Source of the DNA: an uncultured bacterium
Lineage (GTDB): Bacteria > Fidelibacterota > Marinisomatia > Marinisomatales > J089
Length of the DNA stretch: 64,000 nucleotides
Direction: 5' to 3'
Assembly: GCA_964535735.1 (NCBI GenBank)
Contig: CAZHTM010000005.1
Location: forward strand, 13,017 to 77,016
Within the stretch, counting starts at the first letter, position 1. Every line of letters starts with the position of its first letter. The notes beneath the pieces are model-generated. The model was not told the origin of the DNA. It saw only the letters and a program-made list of their open reading frames with translations, and searched no databases. This document shows, one piece after another, positions 5,744 through 30,196 of the stretch. Position numbers and translations under genes: made by a program.

Positions 5744-5863
5744 TGGTTACTCCTTTCAGTCTCCAGGTCTCAGGTACCTGGTTGGTACAGCATCCAAAAT
5801 CAGGATAGAAATTGGATCAGGACGATCAATTTTGCCACACCAAATTCATTAGAAAATTTATAT

Positions 5864-5892
5864 TTGACTTAATACAGATATAATTGTATACT
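5864..5892 (+). promoter_or_regulatory. Sigma-70-type promoter candidate TTGACT-N17-TATACT for the pilus operon
   Basis: TTGACT at 5864-5869, a 17-nt spacer, and TATACT at 5887-5892, in the divergent cvpA / merR-like intergenic region. Confidence 0.5.
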
Positions 5893-5911
5893 ACTCAACC
5901 GAGGTAAGGTT

Positions 5912-6025
5912 ATGAATCTTAGTTATCTTCATTCAAACGTGGGAGTTGTGTACCCAAAACCACTCAATGGTTGTACACCTTACTCTATAACCATTGAGTT
6001 AACGACACTGTCTACCATCCTATGA
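5912..6025 (+). CDS. Candidate 37-aa leader ORF (MNLSYLHSNVGVVYPKPLNGCTPYSITIELTTLSTIL) whose stop overlaps the merR-like ATG
   Basis: GAGGTAAGG lies 2-11 nt upstream of ATG 5912. Its TGA (6023-6025) overlaps ATG 6022 (ctATGA). It is below the ORF-track size cutoff and I translated it by hand. Confidence 0.25.
   Translation: MNLSYLHSNVGVVYPKPLNGCTPYSITIELTTLSTIL
5962..5999. promoter_or_regulatory. 11-bp perfect inverted repeat ACTCAATGGTT-N16-AACCATTGAGT in the leader upstream of the merR-like gene
   Basis: Arms at 5962-5972 and 5989-5999. It could be an operator or an RNA hairpin in the 5-prime leader. Confidence 0.4.
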
Positions 6026-6252
6026 CTACGTATCTAATCGGCGATTTAGCCATGAAAACCGGATTATCACTCCATACCCTCAATTACTATCTCCGAATAG
6101 GACTGATTAAAGAAGTGGGGCGTAGCGAAAGCAGTAATTATCGATATTTTAATGACCAGACCGTTGAAGAATTAACGCGGATTATTGACCTGCGCCTCAA
6201 GCATGTCCCTCTCCGTGAAATCAAATGGAGAAAAGAAAATGGAATATTATGA
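6022..6252 (+). CDS. Short MerR-family HTH transcriptional regulator (76 aa, no effector domain)
   Basis: IGDLAMKTGLSLHTLNYYLRIGLI...YRYFNDQTVEELTRIIDLR matches the MerR N-terminal winged HTH. It is the first gene of the co-directional pilus cluster. Confidence 0.75.
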   Translation: MTTYLIGDLAMKTGLSLHTLNYYLRIGLIKEVGRSESSNYRYFNDQTVEELTRIIDLRLKHVPLREIKWRKENGIL

Positions 6253-7069
6253 ACATTTGGGGCTAACCAAAGAACCTTTCTCCAATACTCCCGACCCGGA
6301 GTTTTTCTACCATTCCCATGAACATCAAGAAGCATTATATCGGTTAGAGATTGCTATTCGCATGCGGCGGGGGTTGAGCGTAATTCTGGGCGCGGTTGGC
6401 ACTGGAAAAACCACCTTGTCACGCATTCTTCTACAGCAATTTGATGGAGATCGCGACAAATTTGTGTTTCGGTTGATCTTAGATCCTAACTTTCAGTCCG
6501 AATACGAATTTATCAAAGCGATCATGGAAGTTTTCGATATTCGGTCAATTCCCAATTCTACTATTGAATGTAAAAATGTGCTTCAGAATCATTTATATAA
6601 AATTTCATTGATCGAGGAACGAAATCCTGTACTAATCCTGGACGAAGGACAAATGTTAACGCCTACGTTTATGGAAGTATTACGCAATCTTTTGAATTAC
6701 GAAACCAATAAACAAAAATTGTTACAGGTGGTCATTTTTGCCCAACCGGAGTTTCTGCTCAAATTAAAAAAGAAACCCAATTTCAATGATCGCATCGCAT
6801 TGGGATATTCCATCAATCCTCTAAATCAAGAAGAGACGGACGAATTAATTCGATTTCGATTGCAACAGGCTGGTGCAAACGGGAAAACAATCTTTAATGA
6901 AGAGGCTATTGAACACATTTATTTTTATACCAAAGGATCACCACGTCAGATTATCAATGTATGCCATGAGGCGCTCATCACCATGATCCGCAACGATAAA
7001 TCCTTGGTGGACGGCCCAGTGATTCAAGGTATTATTAAGCAAAGAGAAAAGTGGGACGCCCTTGTCTGA
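6239..7069 (+). CDS. ExeA/GspA/MshM-like AAA ATPase (secretin-assembly-associated family)
   Basis: MEYYEHLGLTKEPFSNTPDPEFFYHSHEHQEALYRLEIAI...GAVGTGKTTL matches the ExeA N-terminal consensus. I moved the start from 6185 to ATG 6239, where the family homology begins. Confidence 0.8.
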   Translation: MEYYEHLGLTKEPFSNTPDPEFFYHSHEHQEALYRLEIAIRMRRGLSVILGAVGTGKTTLSRILLQQFDGDRDKFVFRLILDPNFQSEYEFIKAIMEVFDIRSIPNSTIECKNVLQNHLYKISLIEERNPVLILDEGQMLTPTFMEVLRNLLNYETNKQKLLQVVIFAQPEFLLKLKKKPNFNDRIALGYSINPLNQEETDELIRFRLQQAGANGKTIFNEEAIEHIYFYTKGSPRQIINVCHEALITMIRNDKSLVDGPVIQGIIKQREKWDALV

Positions 7070-10000
7070 CTTTCAGGAAAATGCTACCAATCGACTTCTG
7101 GAAATCCTGAGAAAACAAGGGACGAAGTCACGGAAAAAGCCGAAACCGGCAGAACCGGATCCGAGTCCCAAAACGAAATCGGAGAGTCCAGAATCACAGT
7201 CCACCTCAATATCTTCTGCACAGGTCCATAAAGATCATGTGATAGACTTCCTACTAAGTGATCTGGAATTGGAACCAGCGGTTGAGGACTCCATTCCTGA
7301 AAAGGAATCTGTCGATGTTCCCGAAATACCGATAGAACCAATTGAGGAGCCTCGAGACACTGCACCTGAGATAACCATCGACGAATCGCCTGAAGATGAC
7401 GCGGCCGAACTGGTATTTCAAGCTGAACAACCGGAGCAGATTGAACCGGATGTTGCCTCCAGTTCACCGGCCGATGAAGACGACCAAGAATTAACATTTA
7501 TCCCGGATGATGAAGAAGGCGTGGGACCTCCCAAATTTGATGAATCTTCACCGCCCTCTGAAACCGGCGAAAAAGATGATCAAGAGGACTTCTCACTCAC
7601 GTTCAGGGATGAACAGGGCGTCGAACCGGCTGTTACAGAGGGCGACAGCGAAACAGCGGAACTCCCCTCGACGGAAGACTCTGAATTAAATCTGGAATTA
7701 GAGCCCTCACCTGCACCCTCTTCCTTAAAGGAGGAAGCGCCAGCAACAGATTTATCTCCGGATAGTGAAGATTCTGTCCTTGAATCCGATGAATTATTTG
7801 ACGAGACACTCGATTCCGCAGACACTCCACCGGAGAAAGACACACCTGTAGAAGAAGTACAAACATCAACTGAGGCTGAAACCACCCCTGAAGCGTCGGA
7901 ACCGGCACCTGAATCAGATTCCCCCGAGGGAACTGACGATATTGAATTTGATTTTGAAGCGTTAACCGAATCCTTAAAAGCAAACAAAAAACAAGCCCCC
8001 CCAGAGGGTTCGACAGATTTTGATTTTAGTCCGCTGGAATCCACAGAACCGGCCGTCATCGAAGATACTTCTGATGCTGAGCCGGAGTCTTTACCGGACG
8101 AGGAGCCAAAAGCAGAGGTGCCCACCAGCACAAGTGAAGAATCGCCAGAAGCAGAAGAACCGGACCAAAAACAAACGGTGGAGCCAACTGACAGTGAAGA
8201 GGATCCGTTTGCCAATGTAGATTTTGGCGGTCGTGAGCCTATTTCAACGGAGGAGCAGGAATCGGATACAACGACGGAAATCCCCGTTGAAACCGAGGAA
8301 CCGGAAGAAGATGTTTTGGCGGAAAAAGAGGAACAGGAAGAACCGACTCCGGACGAAGAAGATAATTTTGATGACTTTGATGATGATCTGGAAGAATCGG
8401 ACACGGTCACGTTTTTCTATCAGAAAGAAAAGAAATTTTCCGTTAAATATCTCTTGTCGAAAATTCGTCCAAATCGTTCCCGAATCGGTCTGGACATTGG
8501 CAGCTATGCCATTAAATATGTTCTGGCCAATGATATTAGTGGAGAAATCTCAATTGAAGATTTCGGTTATGTAAAAATACCCAGCAATATTCGGGGGAAT
8601 AAAAAAGAAACAGCCACATTTATAAAAAATACCGTTCGGTCTATTCTAAGTGAAAACGAACTTAAAAAATCCAAGATCAACTTACTAATTAGCGGATCAG
8701 ACATTGGAATTAAGAATATTCAGATGCCCAAAGTTGGGAAAAAGGAGCTACAGGAAGCCGTAAGATGGTCAACAAAAAAGCACCTTTCCTTTTCCGCTGA
8801 CGAATCGGTTCTGGACTTTAAGGTTTTAAAAGAGACCGTTGTTGATGGCGTTCCCAAATTAGATATTTTAGTGGTAGCGGCTTTGGAATCACTGGTGGAA
8901 GATCAGATCAGTTTTCTTTCAGGTCTGAAAATACCCAGTAAAATTCTTCCCACCCCGCTGGCCATGTGGCGGTATTATGTGGGTCATTACCCTACCGAGA
9001 ATCTGCAGAATGTGATGGTGATAGACATTGGACATGAAACGACCATGATCAATGTGATTCATGATCAGGAATTGCGGTTTGCTCGGGAAATCGGCGTATC
9101 CGGAAAAGATTTAACGGAAGCCTTAATCGGATCTATGACCACTTCGCGGGGAGAACGCGTTAATGTAGAAGAAGACCAGGCCGAATTCTTCAAAATCAAA
9201 TACGGGTTTCCACTAAAAGAAACTGAAAATCGAGTTACGGATGAAGATATTCCTCTGGTGCAACTCTCGTCCCGGCTCCGATCTCCCTTAGAAAAACTCG
9301 CGAACGAAATCCAACGATCCATTCAATATTACGCGAAGGAATTCTCCTTCGGTCCTATTGATAAAATCTACCTTTGCGGTGGCACCGCTAGTATGATGAA
9401 TTTAGTGGATTTTCTGTCTGATTATTTAAATATGGACGTTCAGGTCAGTGATCCTTTGAGGATTTGGACCATTGAAAAATCGTTATCAAACCTGGAACTC
9501 CTGGAAGATAATTCAACCGCTTTAGCGACGCCGGCTGGCATCTCCATCGATATTTCGCCAGAACTCAACCTTCTTCCACAAAAATACGTTCAGGAAACTC
9601 AGACACGGACGTTAAAAACAGTATTTCGTCTCTTTCTGTTAGCAGCGGTTGTATCGGTAGTAAGTTTATCAACCACAGTCTCCATGAAAGGGAAAACCTA
9701 TACATCTGAACTGGAATCTTTAAAACAACGGGTCGGCCAGATGTCCTCCCTTGAGAAGCAAGTTGTCCAATTACAGGAAACAAAAAAAGACGCACAAAAG
9801 AAAGTGGGTGTGCTGAAAAAAATGTTTAATGAACCCACATTCAACGTTCAAGTTTTACGCATCATCAGCAATTTGCTACCAGAAAATGTATCGTTGGAGT
9901 CGCTGGAAAACATCGGTCATATCACATCATCTTCGCAGGCACAAATCCGCTTAGTCGGATATATTGAAACCACAAAATATGACGCCAATGTTCGGTTAGC

Positions 10001-10136
10001 AGAACTGGTTATGCGGTTGGAAAATTCAGGATACATGACAAATGTGGTCTTAAAAAATTCCCAACCCGTGGAGAATGATTATTTCACCGGATTGCAATTC
10101 GAAATTCAATGTCAGGTAAATGGTTATGAAGGTTAA
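7062..10136 (+). CDS. pilM: PilM-PilN fusion protein with ~450-aa acidic, Pro/Ser/Thr-rich N-terminal extension (1024 aa)
   Basis: aa ~470-830 have actin-like PilM features (IGLDIGSYAIKYV, VIDIGHETTMINV, LCGGTASM). An NLLP motif at 9567-9578 is followed by a TM helix (FRLFLLAAVVSVVSL) and a coiled coil, which equals PilN. The first ~445 aa are Asp/Glu-rich low complexity. TTG start. Confidence 0.8.
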   Translation: MSDFQENATNRLLEILRKQGTKSRKKPKPAEPDPSPKTKSESPESQSTSISSAQVHKDHVIDFLLSDLELEPAVEDSIPEKESVDVPEIPIEPIEEPRDTAPEITIDESPEDDAAELVFQAEQPEQIEPDVASSSPADEDDQELTFIPDDEEGVGPPKFDESSPPSETGEKDDQEDFSLTFRDEQGVEPAVTEGDSETAELPSTEDSELNLELEPSPAPSSLKEEAPATDLSPDSEDSVLESDELFDETLDSADTPPEKDTPVEEVQTSTEAETTPEASEPAPESDSPEGTDDIEFDFEALTESLKANKKQAPPEGSTDFDFSPLESTEPAVIEDTSDAEPESLPDEEPKAEVPTSTSEESPEAEEPDQKQTVEPTDSEEDPFANVDFGGREPISTEEQESDTTTEIPVETEEPEEDVLAEKEEQEEPTPDEEDNFDDFDDDLEESDTVTFFYQKEKKFSVKYLLSKIRPNRSRIGLDIGSYAIKYVLANDISGEISIEDFGYVKIPSNIRGNKKETATFIKNTVRSILSENELKKSKINLLISGSDIGIKNIQMPKVGKKELQEAVRWSTKKHLSFSADESVLDFKVLKETVVDGVPKLDILVVAALESLVEDQISFLSGLKIPSKILPTPLAMWRYYVGHYPTENLQNVMVIDIGHETTMINVIHDQELRFAREIGVSGKDLTEALIGSMTTSRGERVNVEEDQAEFFKIKYGFPLKETENRVTDEDIPLVQLSSRLRSPLEKLANEIQRSIQYYAKEFSFGPIDKIYLCGGTASMMNLVDFLSDYLNMDVQVSDPLRIWTIEKSLSNLELLEDNSTALATPAGISIDISPELNLLPQKYVQETQTRTLKTVFRLFLLAAVVSVVSLSTTVSMKGKTYTSELESLKQRVGQMSSLEKQVVQLQETKKDAQKKVGVLKKMFNEPTFNVQVLRIISNLLPENVSLESLENIGHITSSSQAQIRLVGYIETTKYDANVRLAELVMRLENSGYMTNVVLKNSQPVENDYFTGLQFEIQCQVNGYEG

Positions 10137-10680
10137 TCCACGCCAAATTATCCTCATTGGATTCGCTGCTATTATTTCAGGCCTCGTAGCTTGGTATTTT
10201 TTCATGTATCAGGGACAATTGGATAAAATCAAACAGGTCCAGGCGGAGATTAGTCGACTAAACGGACAGCTTAGCCGAGGAAAGATGTCTATAAACAATT
10301 TGCCAAAATTGAAATCTTCGGTTAATGAATTGGTAATGGAATTCGATTCCCTTTCAATGAAACTGCCCACAAAAGACCAGGTTTCCGCCATGACCAATGA
10401 TATTGTGGAGGCTGCGCTGGCTCAGGATTTAACGATTGATAAAATCCAGCCCTCGATTGACGCCATGCTTAAATCTCCTGATTATTTTGTGAAAGTACCT
10501 ATTGAAATTGTGCTTAGCGGAAGTTTTCTGAAATTTGGGGCTTTTCTGGAATCGCTGTATCAATTGCCTTTCAAAATATATGTCACTGATCTGTCTCTGA
10601 AACGTAAAGCTGACGCCATGTCCATTTCTGCTGAACTTAACGCTTATTTTTATGTTATCAATCCCGGAGGGAAAATTTAA
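10120..10680 (+). CDS. pilO: Type IV pilus assembly protein PilO
   Basis: N-terminal TM helix, a coiled coil, then KLPTKDQVSAMTNDIVEAA...YFVKVPIEIVLSGSFLKFGAFLESLYQLPF, typical of PilO. Confidence 0.75.
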   Translation: MVMKVNPRQIILIGFAAIISGLVAWYFFMYQGQLDKIKQVQAEISRLNGQLSRGKMSINNLPKLKSSVNELVMEFDSLSMKLPTKDQVSAMTNDIVEAALAQDLTIDKIQPSIDAMLKSPDYFVKVPIEIVLSGSFLKFGAFLESLYQLPFKIYVTDLSLKRKADAMSISAELNAYFYVINPGGKI

Positions 10681-10683
10681 GCA

Positions 10684-11214
10684 ATGGCCGAACGATCCAA
10701 ATCCCAGATAATTTTGCTGATCATACTGGTCGTCTCGTTATCCTATCTGGTTTATGACATGATGTTCAATAAAACGCCATCCACGAAAGAACTGATTCAA
10801 AAAATTAATTCGGAAGCTTCTCCTCCACCTCCGCAAACACAACCGGCAACGAATGCTTCGATACCTGCAATACGTCCCAAACAAATTCAACGGGCCAAAA
10901 CTGAAAAAATTCCCTCGTATGCTATGGTATGGGGACGAGATCCTTTTGTGGGATTAATCAGCGAGGTCCCGGCCGGGACAAACGAAGAAGAAAACGTGGT
11001 GGAAGAAGAACCAGTGTATATCGAAGACTATATTTTATCCGCTATCTCTTTCCGCGGGGACCGTCCGGCTGTTTTAATTAATGAATCCATTCTCAAAGTG
11101 GGAGATAAAATTGATGGACTGGTTTTAAAAGAAGTTCGTCCCGCCTCGGTGGTATTAGCATCTGCCAGCGGAAAGGAATATATTCTAAACCTACAAACCA
11201 CGTCGGAACAGTGA
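10684..11214 (+). CDS. PilP-like (GspC HR-domain-like) pilus assembly protein
   Basis: N-terminal TM helix, a Pro-rich linker and a C-terminal beta domain (YILSAISFRGDRPAVLINESILKVGDKIDGLVLKEVRPASVVL). It sits between pilO and the secretin gene. Confidence 0.55.
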   Translation: MAERSKSQIILLIILVVSLSYLVYDMMFNKTPSTKELIQKINSEASPPPPQTQPATNASIPAIRPKQIQRAKTEKIPSYAMVWGRDPFVGLISEVPAGTNEEENVVEEEPVYIEDYILSAISFRGDRPAVLINESILKVGDKIDGLVLKEVRPASVVLASASGKEYILNLQTTSEQ

Positions 11215-12578
11215 AATCATTTGCATCCATTGCCACGTCGATTCTGATGATCTTATGCCTCGGTTTCAGCCAGGACGGCTCATCGTCGCAATCCAAGCCG
11301 ACCACCGCTCGGTCAAAAGAACTGTTGACAATGGATTTTGTCAACGCAGATCTTCAGGGTGTACTACGGCTATTAGCGGAACAGAACAATATCAATTTGG
11401 TCGTCAATGAAAACATTAGCGGTACCGTGACGGTTCATTTCGTTAATGTCACTCTCAAAGGAGCTTTGGATGCCATTTTAAAATCCAATGGATTTGATTA
11501 CATCATTCAGGATAACATTTTAATTGTAAAACCGATTGATACTGAAATGGAAGGAGAAACGGACACCCGTGTTTTTCAGTTGGATTATATTTCAGCCAAT
11601 GATGCTATCGGCCCTCTAGAGGATATCCTGACCCCGAAGGGAGCGATTCAGGTTTTTCAGCGCTCATCTGAATTATCTCAAGGTGGCGATACCGAGTCCT
11701 CCACTCGGGCCGATGAACTGGTAATCACAGATATTCCCTCTAATTTTGATCGAATCGAGTCCTTAATCAAACAACTGGATGTACCGGTTCCTCAAGTGAT
11801 GATTAGCGTAAAGTTTATTGAAACAATTCTATCAGATAATGAAAACATGGGCATCGATTGGACAGCCAAGGCTACCGTGCAAGGTGGTCCGGTACAGGCT
11901 ACTTCAACCGGTTTGGTATCCGCCGGAGGTGCTACTGGAACGGCTGGCACGACGGGTGGAACCACTGGGGGTAGCGCGCTCTCGGGCCTGGGAATTGGTA
12001 AATTTAAGCAACTGAATTTGGCTATATTAACATTTCAGGAGTTTCAGGTTGTCTTGGACTATCTTAAATCTAAAGGAAATTCCAAGATTTTATCGGATCC
12101 CCGAATTACAACGCTGGACAACCATCGGGCTCAATTTACTACTGAGACAGAATTAACCGTAATCGTTCCCACGGTCGCCCAGGGCGCCACGGGAGCTTTG
12201 GCTACTGAGACCGCTGAAAAATACACTATCAAAATTGAATTGGTGGTCCTGCCTCACGTGCATAACAATGGCCAAATCACAATGGTTGTGGAACCGACTG
12301 TGGAAGGCATAACAGGATACTCGGGTCCAAATCTGGACCAACCGATAATTTCCCGACGGAATGCTCAGACGCAAGTCAGAGTTAATAATGGTGAGACAAT
12401 CGCTATGGGTGGTTTGATTAAGGAAGATGTGCGGGAGTTGGAACGCAAAGTACCGTTTTTAGGAAATATTCCGCTAATCGGGAAATTGTTTACATATCGT
12501 TCGAATGAAACCCAAAAAAGCGATTTGTTGATTTTCATTACTCCTCACCTGGTTTATTCAGATAGAAAAACGGAGTAA
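11211..12578 (+). CDS. pilQ: Secretin (PilQ/GspD family), short form with Gly/Thr-rich insert
   Basis: Signal peptide, an N0-like domain (MDFVNADLQGVLRLLAEQNNINLVV) and the C-terminal secretin signature VPFLGNIPLIGKLFTYRSNETQKSDLLIFITPHLV. The GTG start overlaps the upstream stop. Confidence 0.85.
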   Translation: MKSFASIATSILMILCLGFSQDGSSSQSKPTTARSKELLTMDFVNADLQGVLRLLAEQNNINLVVNENISGTVTVHFVNVTLKGALDAILKSNGFDYIIQDNILIVKPIDTEMEGETDTRVFQLDYISANDAIGPLEDILTPKGAIQVFQRSSELSQGGDTESSTRADELVITDIPSNFDRIESLIKQLDVPVPQVMISVKFIETILSDNENMGIDWTAKATVQGGPVQATSTGLVSAGGATGTAGTTGGTTGGSALSGLGIGKFKQLNLAILTFQEFQVVLDYLKSKGNSKILSDPRITTLDNHRAQFTTETELTVIVPTVAQGATGALATETAEKYTIKIELVVLPHVHNNGQITMVVEPTVEGITGYSGPNLDQPIISRRNAQTQVRVNNGETIAMGGLIKEDVRELERKVPFLGNIPLIGKLFTYRSNETQKSDLLIFITPHLVYSDRKTE

Positions 12579-12584
12579 AGACCT

Positions 12585-13691
12585 ATGGCATTGAATCTCA
12601 TTAAACTTCTTACAGCTGTATCCCGGAGCGGTGCTTCTGATTTCCACCTCAGTTCCGGTTATCCTCCGATCATCCGTAAAAATGGTGAAACACGTTGGTT
12701 GGATCAACCCGCCCTAACACCTCAAGAAGCCCACGATGCGATTTATGGGATTCTGACTGAGCGTCAAATCGCCATCTTTGAGGAATTTCATGAAGTCGAT
12801 TTAGGTTGGCATATTAAAGGTGTAGGCCGATTTCGTGTGAATGTATACAGTTTTGCCAATGGAATTGGGGCCGCCTTTCGGGTTATTCCGGATAAAATTT
12901 GGACCCTGGATGATATAAACGCGCCTCCCGCATTACAAAAACTCGCAAAAGCCCGTAAAGGTCTTATTTTGGTCACTGGCGCTACGGGTAGTGGGAAATC
13001 CACAACGCTAGCGGCGATTGTGGATTATATCAACAGTACTCGGCGGGGCCATATTTTAACCATTGAAGACCCAATTGAGTTTGTGCATAAAAGTAAAAAA
13101 TGTTTAATCACTCAGCGGGAAATCGGTACGCATAGCCATTCTTTCGCTAATGCCCTCCGGGCGGCTTTACGGGAAGACCCGGATGTCATTTTGGTTGGTG
13201 AAATGCGTGATCTCGACACCATCTCCCTGGCCTTAACGGCTGCCGAAACCGGGCACCTTGTTCTGGCAACATTGCATACTGGTAGTGCACCGGAAGCCGC
13301 TGACCGGGTCATTGATGTGTTTCCCTCCAGTCAACACAACCAGATTCGAGCGATTTTCTCCAGCACATTGGAAGGCGTAGTAGCCCAAAAACTGGTACGA
13401 ACCAAACACGGTGACGGACGGGTAGCCGCCATGGAAATCATGTTGGGAACCAATAGTATAAAAAACCTGATTCGGGAACGGAAATCACACCAGTTGCGGT
13501 CCGCCATTCAAACGTCCACCGAAGACGGGATGCAGACGAGCGATCAAGCCTTGATCCGATTACTGGACGAAGACGTCATTACTCTTGAAGAAGCCCAAAT
13601 GTATGCTGAAGAACTTCGGCCATTTGAAGAATGGGCCGGAAGTATCCGAAACGTCCTTCATTCCAAACGGAGAGCAAAGTCCACTATATGA
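12585..13691 (+). CDS. pilT: PilT-family retraction ATPase, copy 1
   Basis: GASDFHLSSGYPPIIRKNGE, Walker A GATGSGKST, and the AIRNLIRE-like motif SIKNLIRE. Confidence 0.85.
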   Translation: MALNLIKLLTAVSRSGASDFHLSSGYPPIIRKNGETRWLDQPALTPQEAHDAIYGILTERQIAIFEEFHEVDLGWHIKGVGRFRVNVYSFANGIGAAFRVIPDKIWTLDDINAPPALQKLAKARKGLILVTGATGSGKSTTLAAIVDYINSTRRGHILTIEDPIEFVHKSKKCLITQREIGTHSHSFANALRAALREDPDVILVGEMRDLDTISLALTAAETGHLVLATLHTGSAPEAADRVIDVFPSSQHNQIRAIFSSTLEGVVAQKLVRTKHGDGRVAAMEIMLGTNSIKNLIRERKSHQLRSAIQTSTEDGMQTSDQALIRLLDEDVITLEEAQMYAEELRPFEEWAGSIRNVLHSKRRAKSTI

Positions 13692-14923
13692 TTAAGCTCC
13701 TTCCCATCCTCGTCCTATCCGGGCTATTTGCTTCTAACAACGGCATGCCGGAGGATCGGAATGCCACCATCATTGGTCGCGTCTTTTATGAAACCAAAGG
13801 TAAGGCCTACGTGGTAAAACAATGCACGGTACGGGTTAATGGACCGGAAGAAGTTCTGCTAGATTACACGGATGATGAAGGCCGTTTTGCAATTCCCATT
13901 GAAATTACCAGTGACTTTCAGGCGTATAAGCTTCTATTCAATTTCGAATTCTCTCGCCGGATTACACCGACAAGTATTGCCCGCGCCACTCGCAATGTGA
14001 ATCCTCGGGCAGTGAAAGATTCGGTTTATAACCTGGGCAACATCTACCTAATCGCCAAGAAACCTCCACCCCGTCAATGGACAATATGGGATTTATTGGA
14101 AGATTCGTTGCAAGCCCTTTATTTCCAAAAACAGGCATTGGTCCAAGATTTAGATCAGATGCAGTTAAAACTAAGCGTCCTTCAACAGCGAAATCAAGAT
14201 TACATGAATAAATTGAAGGGACTGGAAGATAAAAATACGGATTACTATGCCCGGATTGAAGAATTGGAGCAACAAAACACCGATTTTGAAGCCGAATTGA
14301 TTCGCCTACGAAAGGATTTGAAGAAGCAAAAAATTTCCGGAAAGTTGTTCGATAATTTTTATCTCAATGAATATTTAAATTTGATCCAAATCCGCGACTC
14401 ACTCCTGGCCATCCTTGATGATAGTGTAGCGGTTATGCATAATCAGCTTCCCAATCTGGATATGATGCTGAAACAGCGTGATTTTTTCTTTTTCCGGTTG
14501 GACCTTTTTGCCAAGCATGTGGGACAGAAAGATACCAATGTTATATCCTATCAGGATTGGATTGATGACCGGGATTCCGTACTTCTAAAGCAATCTTTAC
14601 TACTATATACAACGCCGTTTGGCGAATTACAGCGGGATCTCTATCAGAAACTTACCCTCCAGCGTAATACCATTTTGGATACCCAGGACAGTCTTGTATT
14701 TTATGAATTAGCTGGATATAATGCTTTCCGTTATCATCTGGTAGTTCCCGGTGAACACCTCTGGAATATTGCTACCCAGGCTCCTGAATTGAAGAACCCG
14801 TACAGTTGGCGAATTCTATATTTGGCCAATAAAGACCAAATTGAAAATCCGGATTCCATTTATCCCGGACAAATAATAAAAATTCCGATCAGGAAAGAAT
14901 CTTCGGATATTGAAAAACCATGA
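13688..14923 (+). CDS. Secreted/anchored protein: CarboxypepD_reg-like domain + coiled coil + C-terminal LysM (TsaP/FimV-like role possible)
   Basis: I moved the start to ATG 13688 (ATGA overlap with the pilT stop). Signal/anchor MIKLLPILVLSGLFA; TIIGRVFYE...TDDEGRFAIPIE; a long heptad region; LysM YHLVVPGEHLWNIA...IYPGQIIKIP. Confidence 0.7.
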   Translation: MIKLLPILVLSGLFASNNGMPEDRNATIIGRVFYETKGKAYVVKQCTVRVNGPEEVLLDYTDDEGRFAIPIEITSDFQAYKLLFNFEFSRRITPTSIARATRNVNPRAVKDSVYNLGNIYLIAKKPPPRQWTIWDLLEDSLQALYFQKQALVQDLDQMQLKLSVLQQRNQDYMNKLKGLEDKNTDYYARIEELEQQNTDFEAELIRLRKDLKKQKISGKLFDNFYLNEYLNLIQIRDSLLAILDDSVAVMHNQLPNLDMMLKQRDFFFFRLDLFAKHVGQKDTNVISYQDWIDDRDSVLLKQSLLLYTTPFGELQRDLYQKLTLQRNTILDTQDSLVFYELAGYNAFRYHLVVPGEHLWNIATQAPELKNPYSWRILYLANKDQIENPDSIYPGQIIKIPIRKESSDIEKP

Positions 14924-16365: not shown

Positions 16366-18018
16366 ATGGCCAAGAAACGAATAGGTGAAATGCTGATTGA
16401 TGCTGGTGTGCTAACACCGGAGCAGTTGCATGAAGGTTTAAAAAAGCAAAAAGAAACTGGCGAACCTCTTGGTAAAGTCATCACCAAACTGGGATTTCTT
16501 ACCGAACATGATTTTATTATCGCCCTGAGTCAGCAACTTGATCTTCCTTATCTTTTTCTCAACAATTATAATTTTGATCCAGAAGTAAAATCGTTAATTC
16601 CGGAAGAATACGCCCGACATAATAAAATTATTCCACTCTTTAAAATTGGCTCAACTCTGATGATCGGTATTTCCGATCCCACCAATATTGACATTTTTGA
16701 TGAATTATCGCGCATGACCAAAATGGAAATTGAGCCCACCCTCTGCGCTGAAAGTGAAATTTTAGAATCTCTGGATGAAATATACGGGACGTCCCGTGAT
16801 ATGGACTCGGTCTTGCAGAAAATACGCACCATGGATCGGGATAAAAAACAACGGCCGGACGAAGAATCCCCCATGATCAAGCTGGTGGAATTGATGTTCG
16901 AACAAGCGGTAAAAATGAAAGCCAGTGACATCCATATTGAGCCGGAAGAATCCCTCCTGAGAGTTCGATACAGAATTGACGGTGTGATGCAAACCGTTTA
17001 TGAACATCCTGCAGATTTACAGGATGAAATCATTTCTCGCGTTAAGGTGATGTCAAATTTAAACATCACTGAAAAACGCACGCCTCAGGATGGTCGATTC
17101 AACATGGTTATTAGCGAAAAACCCTTTGATTTCCGGGTATCTACGCTCCCAACAGTCTATGGAGAAAATGTGGTGATCCGTATTTTGGATCAAAGTAGCA
17201 TTCAAATGAAACTGGCCGATTTGGGTATGGCACCGGAAATGTTAAAGGCGTTTAACCAGGCGCTCCATGAACCGAATGGCATTATTTTGGTCACCGGGCC
17301 TACCGGGTCTGGAAAATCCACAACACTATATGCTTCCCTGAATACTATTAATTCACCGGATAAAAATATCATTACGATTGAGGATCCGGTGGAATATCGG
17401 CTGCCTTTAATCCGGCAATCCAATGTCAATCCTAAGATCGGTCTCTCATTCGCCGCAGGATTGCGCTCCATTCTCCGGCAGGATCCAGATATTATAATGG
17501 TGGGTGAAATTCGTGACTCGGAAACCGCGACCGTTGCTGTGCAGGCGGCTATGACCGGTCACTTGGTTCTCAGTACCTTGCACACCAACGACACTGTCAG
17601 TTCGGCAACTCGGTTAATTGATATGGGTGTGGAACCATTTTTAGTGGCATCTTCTACAAAAGCCATACTGGCTCAACGACTGGTTCGAAAAATCTGTAAT
17701 CGGTGTAAAATGGCCTATGAGCCAGAAAAAGAAATTCTAGAAGAGTTGAATCTGGCCAACATTAAACAAAAAATAAAATTCTATAAAGGTAAGGGATGTA
17801 AAAACTGTCGGCACACCGGTTATAAAGGTCGAGTTGGACTTTATGAGATTTTGCTTATTACCGAAGGGGTACGACGATTAATTGTCGCGAAAGCCGGATA
17901 TGATAACCTTTTAGATAAAGCCTTGGAAGAAGGCCTGATTCAGTTAAAATATGATGGAATTCGAAAAGTTATCCAGGGAATAACCACTCTGGATGAAGTT
18001 TTGAGGGTATCGTCCTGA
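16366..18018 (+). CDS. pilB: Type IV pilus extension ATPase (PilB/MshE type) with N-terminal MshEN-like c-di-GMP-binding motifs
   Basis: Walker A GPTGSGKST and the tetracysteine CNRC...CKNC. The N-terminus has RIGEMLIDAGVLTPEQLHEGLKKQ, a 5-aa spacer, then LGKVITKLGFLTEHDFIIALSQQ. Confidence 0.9.
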   Translation: MAKKRIGEMLIDAGVLTPEQLHEGLKKQKETGEPLGKVITKLGFLTEHDFIIALSQQLDLPYLFLNNYNFDPEVKSLIPEEYARHNKIIPLFKIGSTLMIGISDPTNIDIFDELSRMTKMEIEPTLCAESEILESLDEIYGTSRDMDSVLQKIRTMDRDKKQRPDEESPMIKLVELMFEQAVKMKASDIHIEPEESLLRVRYRIDGVMQTVYEHPADLQDEIISRVKVMSNLNITEKRTPQDGRFNMVISEKPFDFRVSTLPTVYGENVVIRILDQSSIQMKLADLGMAPEMLKAFNQALHEPNGIILVTGPTGSGKSTTLYASLNTINSPDKNIITIEDPVEYRLPLIRQSNVNPKIGLSFAAGLRSILRQDPDIIMVGEIRDSETATVAVQAAMTGHLVLSTLHTNDTVSSATRLIDMGVEPFLVASSTKAILAQRLVRKICNRCKMAYEPEKEILEELNLANIKQKIKFYKGKGCKNCRHTGYKGRVGLYEILLITEGVRRLIVAKAGYDNLLDKALEEGLIQLKYDGIRKVIQGITTLDEVLRVSS

Positions 18019-26121: not shown

Positions 26122-27123
26122 ATGCCACAAAAGCTAAATAGATTTGAACGATATTTAAGTTCCAATTTAGGGTATGGGTCATCTTCTTTTACTTATAAAG
26201 AACTATTATTATTTAATGAAAAACTATTAGCTCAAATCCGGGCAGGCCAAATTCTCTCGGATGCACTTGAAGCTGTATTTGATACCACGGGAAATCGCGT
26301 CCAGAGGATGGTGCTATTCAGTATTACAAACGCCGTAAAAGCCGGTGCCCCTCTCTCCCAGGCTATGCTTACATTTAAAGATATTTTCCCTAATTTTTAT
26401 ATTGCCATGATTATGGCGACGGAAAGAAGTGGAAAAATGATTCAGGGTCTGGAAGCCATGAGCTTACACCTGAAGAACGAAAATAAATTGTTCGATTATT
26501 ACAATGTCTCTATGTTTTACCTGAGACTTCTGATTTATCTATTTTTAGCGGGAATGGTCTATTTATTTGTACGCTTGGGGATTTTAACTCTCTCTCTTGA
26601 CAGCATTCTCTACTCCACCGGCACATTAGCCTTTCTTGCTTTAATAGGTAGTTGGGTTAGTCGTATTCTACAGAAAAATGAAGTACTGAAAGAAAATATA
26701 TTAAACATTATACCATTTGCCGGAAAGATTCATAACTTGGCCTTGATCAGCAGTTATTGTTTTCTTTTTAATGTTTTTCATAGATCAGGTGTCCCCATTT
26801 CCCAGATCAATGGTTTACTTGTCAATTATATTGGCGGAGCTCATTTAGCTCAGGATATCCAACGACTAGGAGAATTGAGCCAGTCCAATCCCGACCCCGA
26901 TCGTTTACCTAAATATTTCACAGTTCTTCCGGATACTCTGGCGCGTGAAATTATTCTCTTTGAACATGGTAAGACTAAGTTCAATACCATTCAAAATTAT
27001 TCTCAGTTTGTCAGCATTGAAATCGATGACATTGCTGCTCAGATTCTTAGCTTGGAAAAACGAATTTTAATGGGCTCTTTAAGTATTGGCGCTTTAGTTA
27101 TTTATTTGTCCTTGATCTATTAA
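26122..27123 (+). CDS. Divergent, short GspF/PilC-family platform-like protein (333 aa)
   Basis: One recognisable T2SSF repeat (LSDALEAVFD...VKAGAPLSQAMLTFKDIFPNFYIAMIMATERSGKMIQGLEAM) plus TM helices. The second repeat is weak. Confidence 0.6.
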   Translation: MPQKLNRFERYLSSNLGYGSSSFTYKELLLFNEKLLAQIRAGQILSDALEAVFDTTGNRVQRMVLFSITNAVKAGAPLSQAMLTFKDIFPNFYIAMIMATERSGKMIQGLEAMSLHLKNENKLFDYYNVSMFYLRLLIYLFLAGMVYLFVRLGILTLSLDSILYSTGTLAFLALIGSWVSRILQKNEVLKENILNIIPFAGKIHNLALISSYCFLFNVFHRSGVPISQINGLLVNYIGGAHLAQDIQRLGELSQSNPDPDRLPKYFTVLPDTLAREIILFEHGKTKFNTIQNYSQFVSIEIDDIAAQILSLEKRILMGSLSIGALVIYLSLIY

Positions 27124-27245
27124 CAATCAAAATGGGGAATAGAAATATTCCCGATTCCATTCTATATTTATTCTTATGAAACTTACTACGGACAGCCGAT
27201 TTCTACTCAAACTCAACCCACTATATTTAGACAAGAGGACTTAAC

Positions 27246-28286
27246 ATGGTCGATATTCTGGAATTGTTGAGATTTACTATTTCTTCCGGCGCTTCAGACC
27301 TCCATTTAAATGCGGGAGCCCCGCCCATGGTGAGAGTTGACGGAATGATGAAAAAAATTGATGTTCCTGATCTGCTACCAGAAGATATCCATCGTCTGAT
27401 TTATGATATCATGACTGACCAAGAACGAAAACGTTTTGAAGAAAATTGGGAATTGGATTTTTCTCGCGAAATCGGGTCCATAGGACGTTTTCGTGTAAAT
27501 GTTTATTACCAGAATGATGGAAAGGCTGCTGTCTTTCGTACCATTCCTACCAAAATTTTAACCATGGAAGAACTCAATTTACCCGATGTGATTAGAAAAT
27601 TATGCAATTTGGAGAAAGGGCTGGTCTTGGTTACCGGTCCAACCGGTAGTGGTAAATCCACAACCCTGGCAGCCATGGTAGACTATATCAATTCCGTTCA
27701 ACGATCCCATATCATTACTATTGAAGATCCGATTGAATTTGTTCATAAAAGTCGGTCTTGTCTAATTAGCCAACGGGAAGTGGGCCGCGATACTAAATCT
27801 TTTTCAAATGCTCTGCGGAGCGCATTGCGGGAAGATCCGGATGTAATCCTGGTAGGTGAAATGCGAGATCTGGAAACAATTGCATTGGCTATCAGCGCTG
27901 CGGAAACCGGACATCTTGTATTTGGAACGCTACACACCAATAGCGTGGCAAAAACCGTGGATCGAATCGTTGATGTATTTCCCACGAATCAGCAAGGACA
28001 AATCCGATCTATGTTTGCCGATTCTATTGAGGGTATCATTTCACAAATACTTTTACGTCGGAAAGAAGGGAAAGGTCGGGTGGCCGCTTTAGAAATATTA
28101 GTGGGAACAAATGCGATTCGAAGTTTGATCCGGGAAAATAAAACATACCAGATTGAATCAGCACTACAGACGGGATCATCCCTGGGTATGTGTACCATGG
28201 AACAAGCCCTTCGAAAGCTACTACAGGATGGAGCTATATCACGTGAAGCGGCCCAAGAAATTATTCCTAAAATGGACGTAACCTGA
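27246..28286 (+). CDS. pilT: PilT retraction ATPase, copy 2 (most canonical)
   Basis: GASDLHLNAGAPPMVRVDG, GPTGSGKST and AIRSLIRE, 346 aa. Confidence 0.9.
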   Translation: MVDILELLRFTISSGASDLHLNAGAPPMVRVDGMMKKIDVPDLLPEDIHRLIYDIMTDQERKRFEENWELDFSREIGSIGRFRVNVYYQNDGKAAVFRTIPTKILTMEELNLPDVIRKLCNLEKGLVLVTGPTGSGKSTTLAAMVDYINSVQRSHIITIEDPIEFVHKSRSCLISQREVGRDTKSFSNALRSALREDPDVILVGEMRDLETIALAISAAETGHLVFGTLHTNSVAKTVDRIVDVFPTNQQGQIRSMFADSIEGIISQILLRRKEGKGRVAALEILVGTNAIRSLIRENKTYQIESALQTGSSLGMCTMEQALRKLLQDGAISREAAQEIIPKMDVT

Positions 28287-28307
28287 TTTCACCCACGGGA
28301 GGTAACC

Positions 28308-29426
28308 ATGAATTTTAGCGATCTGATGAAATTAATGGTGGAAAAAGATGCCACCGACCTTTACATCTCAGTCGGAAATCCACCGATGTATCGAATTGGG
28401 CATGAAATCTATCCTGTAAGTTCTACCAAGCTTACTCCCGCTATGACCGAAAAAATTGCATATTCATTTTTAGATGAAAAACAGGCCAGGGAATTTCAAG
28501 AACATCATGAGATCGATATAGCCTATTCGGTACCGGGAGTTGGTCGGGTGCGGATAAATATTTTCCTGCAACGTGGATCAGTTGGATTAGTATTGAGACA
28601 TATCAAGTCGGAAATCCGCACTCTGGAAGACCTGGGCATGCCGGCTATTATCAGTAAAATTTGTGATACACCTCGTGGACTTGTTCTCATCACCGGTGCC
28701 ACCGGCAGTGGTAAATCCACAACGTTGGCAGCCATGATCGACCACATCAATTCAACCCGTACGGGGCACATCGTTACCATCGAAGACCCCATGGAATTTT
28801 TACATTACCATAAAAAATGTATTGTCACCCAACGTGAAGTGGGAATGGACACCGAATCCTATGCCGTCGCATTGAAAAGTGCCTTACGTCAGACACCGGA
28901 TGTTCTACTGATAGGAGAAATTCGAGATCGGGAGACCATGAAGGCGGCTTTAACTTTTGCAGAAACCGGTCATTTAGTTTTCAGTACCTTACATTCAGTC
29001 AATGCATCACAAACACTTGAACGGATCATGAATTTCTTTCCCGTTGATAATCACCCAATGATTCGTCAACACCTTTCATTAAACTTACGCGCGATCATCT
29101 CTCAGCGACTCGTCACTCGCAAGGATGGTTCCGGGATGGTAGCTGCCCTGGAGATTCTGGTGAATACATCACGAATTAGTGACTTGATGTATAAAGGTCT
29201 CATTGATGAAGTAAAAACAACCATTGGCGCATCCCGTGAGTCGGGAATGCAAACTTTTGATCAACATCTTTTTGACCTTTACAAGGAAGGGATAATTTCC
29301 ATGGATGATGCCCTCACAGCAGCAGACAGCGCCAATGATTTGAAACTACATATGAAAATGGAAGGTGCCGAAGTGGAAGCCGATCGTAATATGATGAATG
29401 AAACCATTACGTTTCGCGATGATTGA
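28308..29426 (+). CDS. pilU: PilU-like PilT-family ATPase
   Basis: DATDLYISVGNPPMYRIG and GATGSGKST. It lacks the AIRNLIRE motif (SRISDLMYKG) and has an extended C-terminus, as in PilU. Confidence 0.8.
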   Translation: MNFSDLMKLMVEKDATDLYISVGNPPMYRIGHEIYPVSSTKLTPAMTEKIAYSFLDEKQAREFQEHHEIDIAYSVPGVGRVRINIFLQRGSVGLVLRHIKSEIRTLEDLGMPAIISKICDTPRGLVLITGATGSGKSTTLAAMIDHINSTRTGHIVTIEDPMEFLHYHKKCIVTQREVGMDTESYAVALKSALRQTPDVLLIGEIRDRETMKAALTFAETGHLVFSTLHSVNASQTLERIMNFFPVDNHPMIRQHLSLNLRAIISQRLVTRKDGSGMVAALEILVNTSRISDLMYKGLIDEVKTTIGASRESGMQTFDQHLFDLYKEGIISMDDALTAADSANDLKLHMKMEGAEVEADRNMMNETITFRDD

Positions 29427-29689: not shown

Positions 29690-30196
29690 ATGATGAAGAA
29701 AACAGGTAATCACGTGCAACAAAGATCATCAAAATCCGGATTCACCTTAATCGAACTAGTTATGGTCATTCTTTTATTAGGAATTTTATCCACTATTGCC
29801 ATTCCCAAAGTAACAGACATTATACAAACTGCCCGATTGAAAGCTACAAAAGGTGAGATGACGGAATTAAAAAAGGCCATTATGGGAGATCCATCTTCTG
29901 TGGCTGGTGGCGTCTTAATTGATAAGGGATTTAATGGCGATATTGGGCATCTTCCCGTAACTTTAGATGATCTTGTGAATCAGGGATCCTATCCCAATTG
30001 GAATCGATTTACCCAATCTGGATGGAACGGACCTTATATTTCTGAAGATTTTTCATCCGACAATGAATGGAAAATAGATGCCTGGGGAAACACATACGAA
30101 ATATTTAGTCCTGCCGCCGGAGATACCAGCCTGCTCAGCTATGGTCCGGATGGCACCAAAGGAACCAGTGATGATCTGAGCCTTCATCTTAAATAA
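29690..30196 (+). CDS. GspG-like major pseudopilin (168 aa)
   Basis: KSG|[22 protein letters not shown] class III signal and C-terminal DAWGNTYEI...SYGPDGTKGTSDD, typical of T2SS GspG. Confidence 0.8.
   Translation: MMKKTGNHVQQRSSKSGFTLIELVMVILLLGILSTIAIPKVTDIIQTARLKATKGEMTELKKAIMGDPSSVAGGVLIDKGFNGDIGHLPVTLDDLVNQGSYPNWNRFTQSGWNGPYISEDFSSDNEWKIDAWGNTYEIFSPAAGDTSLLSYGPDGTKGTSDDLSLHLK

Follow-up and report, generated by a model that had tools for sequence, protein, structure and literature searches.

In the type IVa pilus systems represented by the structures 2YCH, 5EOU/5EOX and 3JC8, PilM and PilN are separate proteins and PilM clamps the free N-terminus of PilN. A fusion of the two has been published for Clostridioides difficile, where the monoderm PilN may use a C-terminal PilM-interaction motif (PMC6916266), and the Amuc_1101 family of Akkermansia likewise holds a PilM-like domain, a transmembrane (TM) helix and a PilN-like region in one chain. 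[quoted passage not shown] The gene described here lies in a 64,000-nucleotide stretch of DNA (the window) from an uncultured Fidelibacterota (Marinimicrobia) bacterium, contig CAZHTM010000005.1, positions 13,017 to 77,016, and occupies positions 7062..10136 of the window on the + strand as one open reading frame (ORF) of 1024 amino acids (aa) with a TTG start. It encodes PilM and PilN as one polypeptide behind an N-terminal extension of about 450 residues, a module that the type IVa model proteins lack and with which neither C. difficile PilMN nor Amuc_1101 has been described. Comparison with related loci points to a PilM-PilN platform protein to which a peptide-on-a-leash module has been added, in which a short N-terminal helix probably ties the ExeA-like ATPase encoded directly upstream to the pilus machine. 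No description of a disordered PilM N-terminal module or of the N-terminal peptide reported here was found in the literature (open-access papers and bioRxiv).

ATPases of the GspA/ExeA type normally possess a TM segment and a peptidoglycan-binding domain, and GspA takes part in secretin assembly together with its membrane partner GspB; some forms do without the periplasmic part and show compensating partner changes (PMC9239104). In Pseudomonas aeruginosa the gene for the ExeA-like protein PA5037 lies beside and upstream of pilMNOPQ, and its loss lowers twitching and pilus number with PilQ multimers unchanged (PMC6321873). Deletion of mshM in Vibrio cholerae leaves piliation by the mannose-sensitive haemagglutinin (MSHA) system normal (PMC4624765), and mshM was used by Denise et al. 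as a mandatory marker of MSH systems (PMC6668835). The locus in the window resembles the GspA/ExeA-GspB/ExeB and MshM-MshN pairs in pairing an ExeA-family AAA+ ATPase with the membrane-anchored product of the next gene downstream. It differs from GspA/ExeA-GspB in that the partner is a PilM-PilN platform subunit and the ATPase lacks both a TM helix and a peptidoglycan-binding domain. Binding of the ATPase by a partner peptide is proposed here and is not an established property of GspB. The features concerned are the following, with aa numbers referring to the PilM-PilN protein.

6022..6252, + strand: MerR-type helix-turn-helix protein of 76 aa (Pfam MerR_1, 1.3e-11), its end overlapping the start of the ExeA-like gene
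6239..7069, + strand: ExeA/GspA/MshM-like AAA+ ATPase, short form, 276 aa from the ATG at 6239 (Pfam AAA_22, 9.7e-19)
7062..10136, + strand: whole PilM-PilN gene, comprising N-terminal helix, predicted disordered linker, PilM, PilN anchor, TM helix, coiled coil and periplasmic PilN
7062..7069, + strand: TTG start overlapping the stop of the ExeA-like gene, TTGTCTGA, 8 nt shared
7077..7118, + strand (aa 6-19): motif 1, amphipathic N-terminal helix, ENATNRLLEILRKQ, from conservation and AlphaFold2 (AF2)
7110..7181, + strand (aa 17-40): basic patch after the helix, RKQGTKSRKKPKP..., from composition
7182..8411, + strand (aa 41-450): polyacidic linker, predicted disordered, from composition and AF2
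7236..7274, + strand (aa 59-71): motif 2, acidic-hydrophobic and of the DLDFLL type, HVIDFLLSDLELE, conserved in P0001, P0004 and L007
8487..9542, + strand (aa 476-827): PilM domain with actin-like ATPase fold (PF11104, PilM_2, 1.1e-36)
9561..9581, + strand (aa 834-840): ELNLLPQ, PilN's N-terminal anchor motif, here internal and linking PilM to the TM helix
9609..9686, + strand (aa 850-875): single TM helix, from hydropathy
9849..10118, + strand (aa 930-1019): periplasmic PilN domain (PF05137, 2e-6, 28.2 bits against a cut-off of 22.8)

Across the sequences compared, the N-terminal helix, and not the acidity, is the conserved element of the extension. Motif 1 follows the consensus [E/D]-x-A-T-N-[R/K]-L-L-x-x-L-R and covers 12 residues of the window protein (aa 6-17, ENATNRLLEILR), of which, in an alignment of 12 diverse motif-1 homologues, A8, T9, L12, L13, L16 and R17 do not vary and N10 hardly does; the invariant positions lie on one face of the helix. 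In the AF2 model of the full-length protein, built on an alignment of 47 homologues, the predicted local distance difference test score (pLDDT) stays below 50 over aa 1-458 with the sole exception of a helix at aa 9-18 (pLDDT 56), which is the only helix predicted in that region and coincides with motif 1; the roughly 450 N-terminal residues are accordingly predicted to be disordered. The motif is unique within the window. Behind the helix the sequence is basic, with 25% Lys/Arg and a net charge of +5 over aa 1-40, and a similar Lys/Pro-rich stretch follows the helix in P0001 and L007.

The helix is linked to the ATPase gene by gene order. A genome scan was made with one genome per species and a query alignment of 12 sequences, and further contigs were looked up. 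Every motif-1 locus found (the window, L001-5, L007-9, L034, L035, L037, L041, L043, L054, L080, L089, L090, L092 and L093) has a short ExeA-like gene of ~275 aa without a TM helix immediately upstream, mostly overlapping or abutting the PilM(N) gene; in L005 and L090 it is seen only as a truncated piece. Conversely, wherever a short ExeA-like gene lies directly upstream, the PilM(N) protein carries motif 1 in all loci but L032. The loci L011-L030 (Thermodesulfobacteriota, Syntrophaceae and Nitrospina) show a different arrangement, with the order PilMN, PilO, an unidentified gene, secretin, ExeA-like ATPase and an MshN-like protein with a TM helix and tetratricopeptide repeats (TPR), as in L012:10494-12754. 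There the fused PilMN has only 3-20 residues before the PilM domain, and the ExeA-like protein encoded after the secretin has its own predicted TM helix. Extended PilMN proteins with motif 2 only are encoded without an ExeA gene upstream in the annotated context of L088 and L091, the two loci of this kind whose surroundings were covered, and without an ExeA match within 912 nt upstream in L010.

The 276-aa ATPase of the window, in which no TM helix, periplasmic domain or peptidoglycan-binding domain was found, matches TIGR03015 (1.1e-51, below the cut-off) and is 100% identical to the 276-aa protein P0195. Records of its homologues read "ExeA family protein" or "general secretion pathway protein A", and the homologous short forms end 1-33 aa past the AAA+ domain with no TM helix. 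The 8-nt overlap between its stop and the PilMN start recurs in L001, L007 and L093, with a 17-nt overlap and an ATG start in L002, and this overlap (TTGTCTGA in the window) suggests translational coupling of the two genes. The MerR-type gene heads the MerR/ExeA-like/PilMN trio and occupies the same position in 9 of the 15 motif-1 loci tested; since the remaining six lack it, MerR is a weaker candidate than ExeA for the partner of the helix and was set aside as less likely. The initial annotation had offered the acidic region as a possible docking site for the PilT-type ATPases or PilB. The idea of docking gains support here, with the upstream ExeA-like ATPase rather than PilT or PilB as the partner favoured by the comparative evidence, and with the helix at aa 6-17, which the initial annotation does not mention, as the key element. 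Four short ExeA-like ATPases (P0198, P0219, P0262 and P0310) are named "transposase" in NCBI records, probably by mis-transfer from TniB/AAA_22-type annotation.

Related peptides occur on proteins of other families encoded at the same position. In an Omnitrophota genome (L096, 6803-7342) and in 80 metagenome loci found with the Omnitrophota-lineage ExeA as query (L098-L177), the gene at the ExeA stop codon is GspC/PilP-like, not PilM, and encodes a bitopic protein of ~200 aa with SPEE[KR]LL[RK]LI[RK]G at its N-terminus; a basic linker comes next, and the TM helix lies near residues 50-65. Many PilMN proteins carry ELATNRLLEILRG, and the core common to these and to the GspC-like N-terminus is [KR]-L-L-x-Φ-Φ-[RK]-G. 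The MshN-like protein encoded after the TM-anchored ExeA in L011-L030 starts with MSLIIDALKKAQ, following the pattern MSLI[IM][DE]ALKKAQ. Carriers of the peptide directly after the ATPase are PilM-PilN in the window, GspC/PilP-like proteins of the Omnitrophota type and perhaps the MshN-like TPR proteins. As a control, the pattern [KR]L[LM]x[LIV][LIV][RK] was sought in the first 45 aa of 2504 six-frame ORFs (minimum 100 aa) from the window and every locus retrieved, and 89 ORFs matched. The window and L001-L096 together give 22 matches, each of them the gene that directly follows ExeA; one match on the opposite strand (E. coli rplW, ribosomal protein L23) is due to chance, and the other 66, placed by strand as a group, are all on the same strand as ExeA in the ExeA-anchored loci L098-L177. 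The peptide thus tracks the ATPase gene and not the PilM fold. It is conceivable, at somewhat less than even probability, that [KR]-L-L-x-Φ-Φ-[RK](-G) is a portable, general adaptor coupling soluble ExeA/GspA/MshM-type ATPases to envelope-spanning type IV filament machines, which in Marinimicrobia was moved onto the platform via a polyanionic leash of ~450 residues. If true, the adaptor peptide would be the first concrete handle on the targets of the poorly understood ExeA-like ATPases of type IV pili. The idea that GspB starts with a similar peptide was checked and dropped: E. coli K-12 GspB starts MFEFYIAAREQ..., and no claim is made for canonical GspB. In L096 the secretin gene comes next after the GspC/PilP-like gene.

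In the full model, which we favour by a narrow measure over its being wrong, a long flexible leash presents an ExeA-docking peptide; gene structure, domains, composition, conservation and the co-occurrence with ExeA are observed directly, and from them we infer that the helix contacts ExeA and what leash and charge would do. The soluble, TM-less ExeA-like ATPase encoded directly upstream would dock on the N-terminal helix, and the disordered linker would act as a leash that concentrates this ATPase at the cytoplasmic face of the pilus platform while avoiding crowding of the PilB/PilT/PilC site under the PilM ring. Peptide and leash together may have taken over from the membrane anchor that the ATPase itself carries in other lineages. 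The negative charge would most likely keep the leash expanded and off the anionic membrane, DNA and ribosomes, as a lineage-specific solution and not a conserved function, and the conserved Phe islands of the linker may add weak secondary contacts. FtsZ carries a short conserved C-terminal peptide on a long disordered linker of varying length and sequence, and offers a functional analogy for a conserved end peptide on a lineage-variable disordered linker. The window protein differs in polarity, its peptide being N-terminal, its partner is a proposed one, and the proteins are unrelated; PilM, for its part, is a structural homologue of FtsA by Foldseek. The PilMN peptide and leash are strictly linked to an ExeA-like ATPase that has no membrane anchor, which suggests that the two are physically coupled; a 25-residue peptide and the soluble 276-residue protein would suffice to test this.

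Several observations weigh against this model. In an AF2 chimera of motif 1, 40 aa of native linker and ExeA, the ATPase folded well and the helix stayed undocked at a pLDDT of 41-44, no better than the 56 of the native protein; the model was a monomer without nucleotide, run on the window chimera and 63 ExeA homologues (64 sequences) with no alignment depth for the peptide. The co-occurrence of helix and ATPase is partly confounded by shared ancestry and operon structure, and the motif-1 PilMN loci come from few related phyla (the FCB group and neighbours). In L032 (Gemmatimonadota, 5806-7785) a short ExeA-like gene lies upstream of a protein with no clear motif 1. The likeness between the PilMN, GspC-like and MshN-like peptides spans 6-8 residues and could reflect convergence on a generic amphipathic, for example membrane-binding, helix. 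The Phe islands of the acidic linker suggest further partners outside the leash model, and the role proposed for the negative charge is drawn by inference. The L032 protein is a fused PilMN with an 81-aa extension, in which a weakly similar LMKGLKDILRN lies beside the PilM domain.

The linker itself (aa 41-450) contains 34.6% Asp/Glu, 3.7% Lys/Arg and 31% Pro/Ser/Thr and has a net charge of -127, in good agreement with the initial description by eye of a third or more acidic residues, almost no basic residues past the first 40 and many Pro/Ser/Thr. As the 17 other window proteins tabulated have 5-16.5% Asp/Glu, the acidity is local and not proteome-wide. A tandem-repeat origin was rejected, no tandem repeats being found in the DNA of the acidic region. 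The linker evolves fast, with only 23-35% identity between orthologues, and Asp/Glu amount to 30-38% in four orthologues of the window's clade; P0050, P0051 and P0056 also keep the acidic character. Among all motif-1 proteins, the linker between motif 1 and PilM varies in length from ~60 to 630 aa and in net charge from -138 (L008) to +34 (L034). The linkers of L034 and L043, of 530-630 residues, are Lys-rich with net charges of +34 and +28, opposite to that of the window protein, and those of L037 (Calditrichota) and L035 are at +10. By these comparisons the acidity is conserved within the window's clade and not across the family, as a clade-level peculiarity. A range of -138 to +34 behind the same N-terminal motif therefore argues against a polyanion-specific core function, such as the cation sink proposed at first. 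With one end peptide on linkers of 60-630 residues and of strongly negative to positive charge, the family forms a natural experiment on disordered linkers, in which the parts under selection (end motif and tethering) can be told from a charge that drifts or adapts locally. L034 and L043 are Neomarinimicrobiota bins with the same ExeA-PilM(N) order (L034:4162-7419 and L043:3970-7209) and the helix IATNRLLDLLR.

A different reading, to which we give a minor share of the probability, regards the linker as functional in itself: a multivalent acidic hub whose islands and DLDFLL-type motif would recruit PilB, PilT-type ATPases or regulators, or drive clustering or condensation, with the helix as one of several docking sites. 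Such a protein would resemble the FimV/HubP-type hubs. FimV/HubP have an acidic cytoplasmic region on an envelope-anchored, type IV pilus-associated protein, and the large, strongly acidic cytoplasmic region of the envelope-anchored window protein offers a functional analogy, although the window PilMN has no LysM domain, no acidic tandem repeats and a different architecture. Phe-centred islands such as ELVF, ELTF, SLTF, IEFDFEAL, TDFDF, PFANVDF and NFDDFDDDLEE align between orthologues whose linkers otherwise diverge, the few aromatic residues of the window's acidic linker are all Phe, and the pattern [DES]-Φ-x-[FY] is enriched in it (5 observed against 1.2 expected, P about 0.002). The DLDFLL-type motif sits right at the N-terminal end in 35 of the 150 related cluster representatives and recurs, often repeatedly, in many extended PilMN proteins without motif 1. 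The retention of acidity in the window's clade and in P0050, P0051 and P0056, and the strong charge segregation produced by a basic N-terminal patch before a long acidic block, also speak for a hub. However, L034, L043, L037 and L035 share the helix and the operon and have basic or near-neutral linkers without islands, so that a hub cannot be the conserved role of the module; the clients of the hub are candidates only, and AF2 shows neither structure nor docking for the islands. We consider it somewhat less probable again that the helix binds another target, such as PilB, PilT or PilC, the PilM domain of a subunit beside it in the ring or the membrane, and that its adjacency to ExeA is inherited operon order. 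This would agree with the undocked helix of the ExeA chimera, and amphipathic N-terminal helices are common as membrane-targeting elements. Recruitment of an ATPase by a platform subunit also has a precedent in the T2SS, where the PilM-like cytoplasmic domain of GspL anchors the GspE ATPase (PMC4471445). Against another target, the related peptide also heads GspC-like and MshN-like proteins without a PilM domain, always after an ExeA-like gene, which links the peptide to ExeA rather than to PilM or PilB, and fused PilMN lacks the peptide where ExeA has its own TM helix. A membrane-targeting helix on a leash of 450 aa would moreover be redundant, as the TM helix already anchors the protein. In the full-length AF2 model, examined for docking on PilM, the N-terminal helix and the Phe islands stayed at low confidence.

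By comparison of orthologous frames, the extension is translated. The case that the acidic region is untranslated, with a true start near aa 450, or that a frameshift or assembly error joins two genes, is contradicted by the comparative data, and we judge it very improbable. It could appeal to the TTG start, to the lack of an in-frame ATG within the first 465 codons of the ORF at 7062-10136, to the orthologue P0002, called at only 664 aa, and to the tendency of low-complexity regions to yield long shadow ORFs. However, P0002 is an artefact of a run of N (scaffold gap) inside the acidic region, and the piece upstream of the gap in L007 has the same N-terminal motif and the same 8-nt ExeA overlap; a second short call, P0007, is also an artefact and starts at a contig edge. 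Independent callers give similar long ORFs in L001 (P0001, 989 aa), L002-4 (P0006, 936 aa), L005 (P0004, 948 aa), L008 and L093, each beginning where the upstream gene ends and with an ATG start in L002 and L005; L093, an identical locus from a JGI metagenome, was independently called as the same 1024-aa gene. The frame of the extension stays open for 360-490 codons in the window/L093, L001, L002, L005, L007 and L008, and over its full length in at least six divergent orthologues, although the proportion of synonymous differences (pS) is saturated even against the closest orthologue (0.67-0.89, about 0.8), and the proportion of nonsynonymous differences (pN) is lower, at 0.46-0.57. With pS saturated, dN/dS is unusable for the extension, and the open frame together with pN < pS was used instead as the evidence of translation. 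No part of the extension is better conserved than its extreme N-terminus, and TTG 7062 is the sole canonical start upstream of the conserved motif there. A start at the TTG of aa 419 would delete all conserved N-terminal features, and the nearest late start, the TTG at aa 465, is preceded by the conserved VTFFYQKEKKFS (aa 449-460). Two side observations concern annotation of this region. A Ser-rich ORF of 276 aa at 7580-8410 (- strand) runs antisense to the acidic region and was rejected as a gene, being a compositional shadow of the GAN-rich Asp/Glu coding frame. In the public assembly of the close relative L007 (6300-6450), the N run splits the gene into an uncalled N-terminal part and a 664-aa "PilM", and on this account errors of assembly and annotation seem to arise from acidic linkers of low complexity.

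Beyond the extension, the assignment of the gene as the inner-membrane platform subunit of a Marinimicrobia (Fidelibacterota) type IV pilus machine, with PilM and PilN in one chain, is strongly supported. The PilM domain scores 126.9 bits against PF11104 (cut-off 27) and 139 bits against NCBIfam TIGR01175 pilM (cut-off 133), and matches the PDB sequences 3jc8 (1.5e-30) and 2ych (1.9e-23). In Foldseek searches against the PDB its best matches are 5eou, 5eq6, 3jc8 and 2ych (TMt 0.70-0.86), which rank above FtsA and MreB; 5EOU (0.82), 3JC8 and 2YCH (0.86) span 0.80-0.86. These three are P. aeruginosa PilM:PilN(1-12), Myxococcus xanthus PilM and Thermus thermophilus PilM-PilN, respectively. The AF2 model gives the PilM domain a pLDDT of mostly 81-98 by 10-residue block, and the block holding ELNLLPQ (aa 831-840), which adjoins it, one of 92. 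The window protein thereby shares with the type IVa PilM-PilN pairs the sequence and fold of the PilM domain, the (E)LNLLP anchor, the TM helix and the PilN domain, and differs from them in being one polypeptide. L835, N836, L837, L838 and P839 are invariant in seven orthologues, and the window protein keeps the INLLP motif of the diderm type; the retention of the anchor at 9561-9581 as an internal linker is exactly as first described. The only 19-mers with a Kyte-Doolittle mean above 1.6 start at aa 850-858, and AF2 predicts one long TM and stalk helix at aa 840-891. A coiled-coil stalk (aa ~876-925) precedes the PilN domain, which is predicted as a ferredoxin-like beta-alpha-beta fold with block pLDDT values of 72-94. 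The resulting topology, with one TM helix between an actin-like domain in the cytoplasm and a ferredoxin-like domain in the periplasm, is that of GspL (T2SS), as had been noted initially, and of MshI (MSHA). The likeness to GspL is one of topology alone, since no match to GspL PF05134 was found in the PilMN protein at E <= 0.01 (Pfam), and its best models are PilM and PilN.

The single-chain arrangement first noted, with PF11104 and PF05137 in one ORF, holds, but its portrayal as a departure from the norm does not. A search with the PilM-PilN core against 1.84 billion cluster representatives (50% identity) returned 10,188 relatives at E <= 1e-3, and among the 150 best, which were tabulated, 140 are fused (at least 150 aa after the PilM domain). 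Judged from these relatives and the published C. difficile case, fusion is the norm in a large family and not unusual. The closest relatives of the window protein belong to Marinimicrobia, Fidelibacterota and FCB-group metagenome bins. The NCBI model NF045709 (Amuc_1101, a fused PilM-like family) aligns with aa 472-950 (2.2e-37), and the score of 129.2 bits, far below the equivalog cut-off of 650, places the window protein outside that family. N-terminal extensions before the PilM domain reach at least 40 aa in 81, at least 100 aa in 63 and at least 300 aa in 18 of the 150 best representatives. The acidic tail, described initially as unusual, is thus of a common kind as an extension and rare in its extreme acidity: only five extensions of at least 100 aa among the 150 reach 30% Asp/Glu, all near the window's clade, and four of these bear motif 1, the exception being the N-terminally truncated P0002. 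For annotation, a PilM-PilN fusion needs no flag as unusual, the long TTG-initiated ORFs are to be taken as real, and the partner ATPases are sometimes mislabelled "transposase".

The window also encodes further proteins in common with type IVa pili, namely PilO, a PilP-like protein, a secretin, PilB, PilC, PilD, PilT and pilins, and the three PilT-type ATPases and PilB mentioned in the initial annotation are all present. The pilus genes located are the following, the first four being assigned with Pfam.

10120-10680, + strand: PilO
10684-11214, + strand: PilP/GspB-like bitopic protein
11211-12578, + strand: short secretin
12585-13691, + strand: PilT-type ATPase
16366-18018: PilB extension ATPase
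27246-28286 and 28308-29426: two further PilT/PilU-type ATPases

The gene order from PilO to PilT is conserved in L001, L002, L005, L007, L008, L089 and L093. The locus resembles MSHA and T2SS loci in its ExeA/MshM-like ATPase, its short secretin and a PilB whose N-terminus is of the MshE type that binds c-di-GMP, and differs from msh in its order, which is ExeA-PilMN-PilO-PilP-secretin instead of the msh order I-J-K-L-M-N found in L011-L030. No MshN-like TPR gene follows the ExeA-like ATPase of the window, and the secretin scores 235.7 bits with the PilQ model against 137.9 with MshL, both below the cut-off. The MshE-related c-di-GMP-binding motif at the N-terminus of PilB (NF053729, 60.7 bits, cut-off 38) indicates that pilus extension may be c-di-GMP-controlled. 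A gene at 13631-14923 runs into the end of the PilT gene and is found at this place in every orthologous locus. Its 430-aa product has a signal/TM-like segment at the N-terminus, a long middle part resembling a coiled coil and a LysM domain at the C-terminus, and may supply the peptidoglycan binding for which the short ExeA-like ATPase has no domain. A second, partial pilus set at 26122-29426 consists of a 333-aa T2SSF protein with one repeat detected (PilC-like), followed by the two PilT/PilU-type ATPases, and a T2SSG-type pseudopilin gene lies at 29690-30196.

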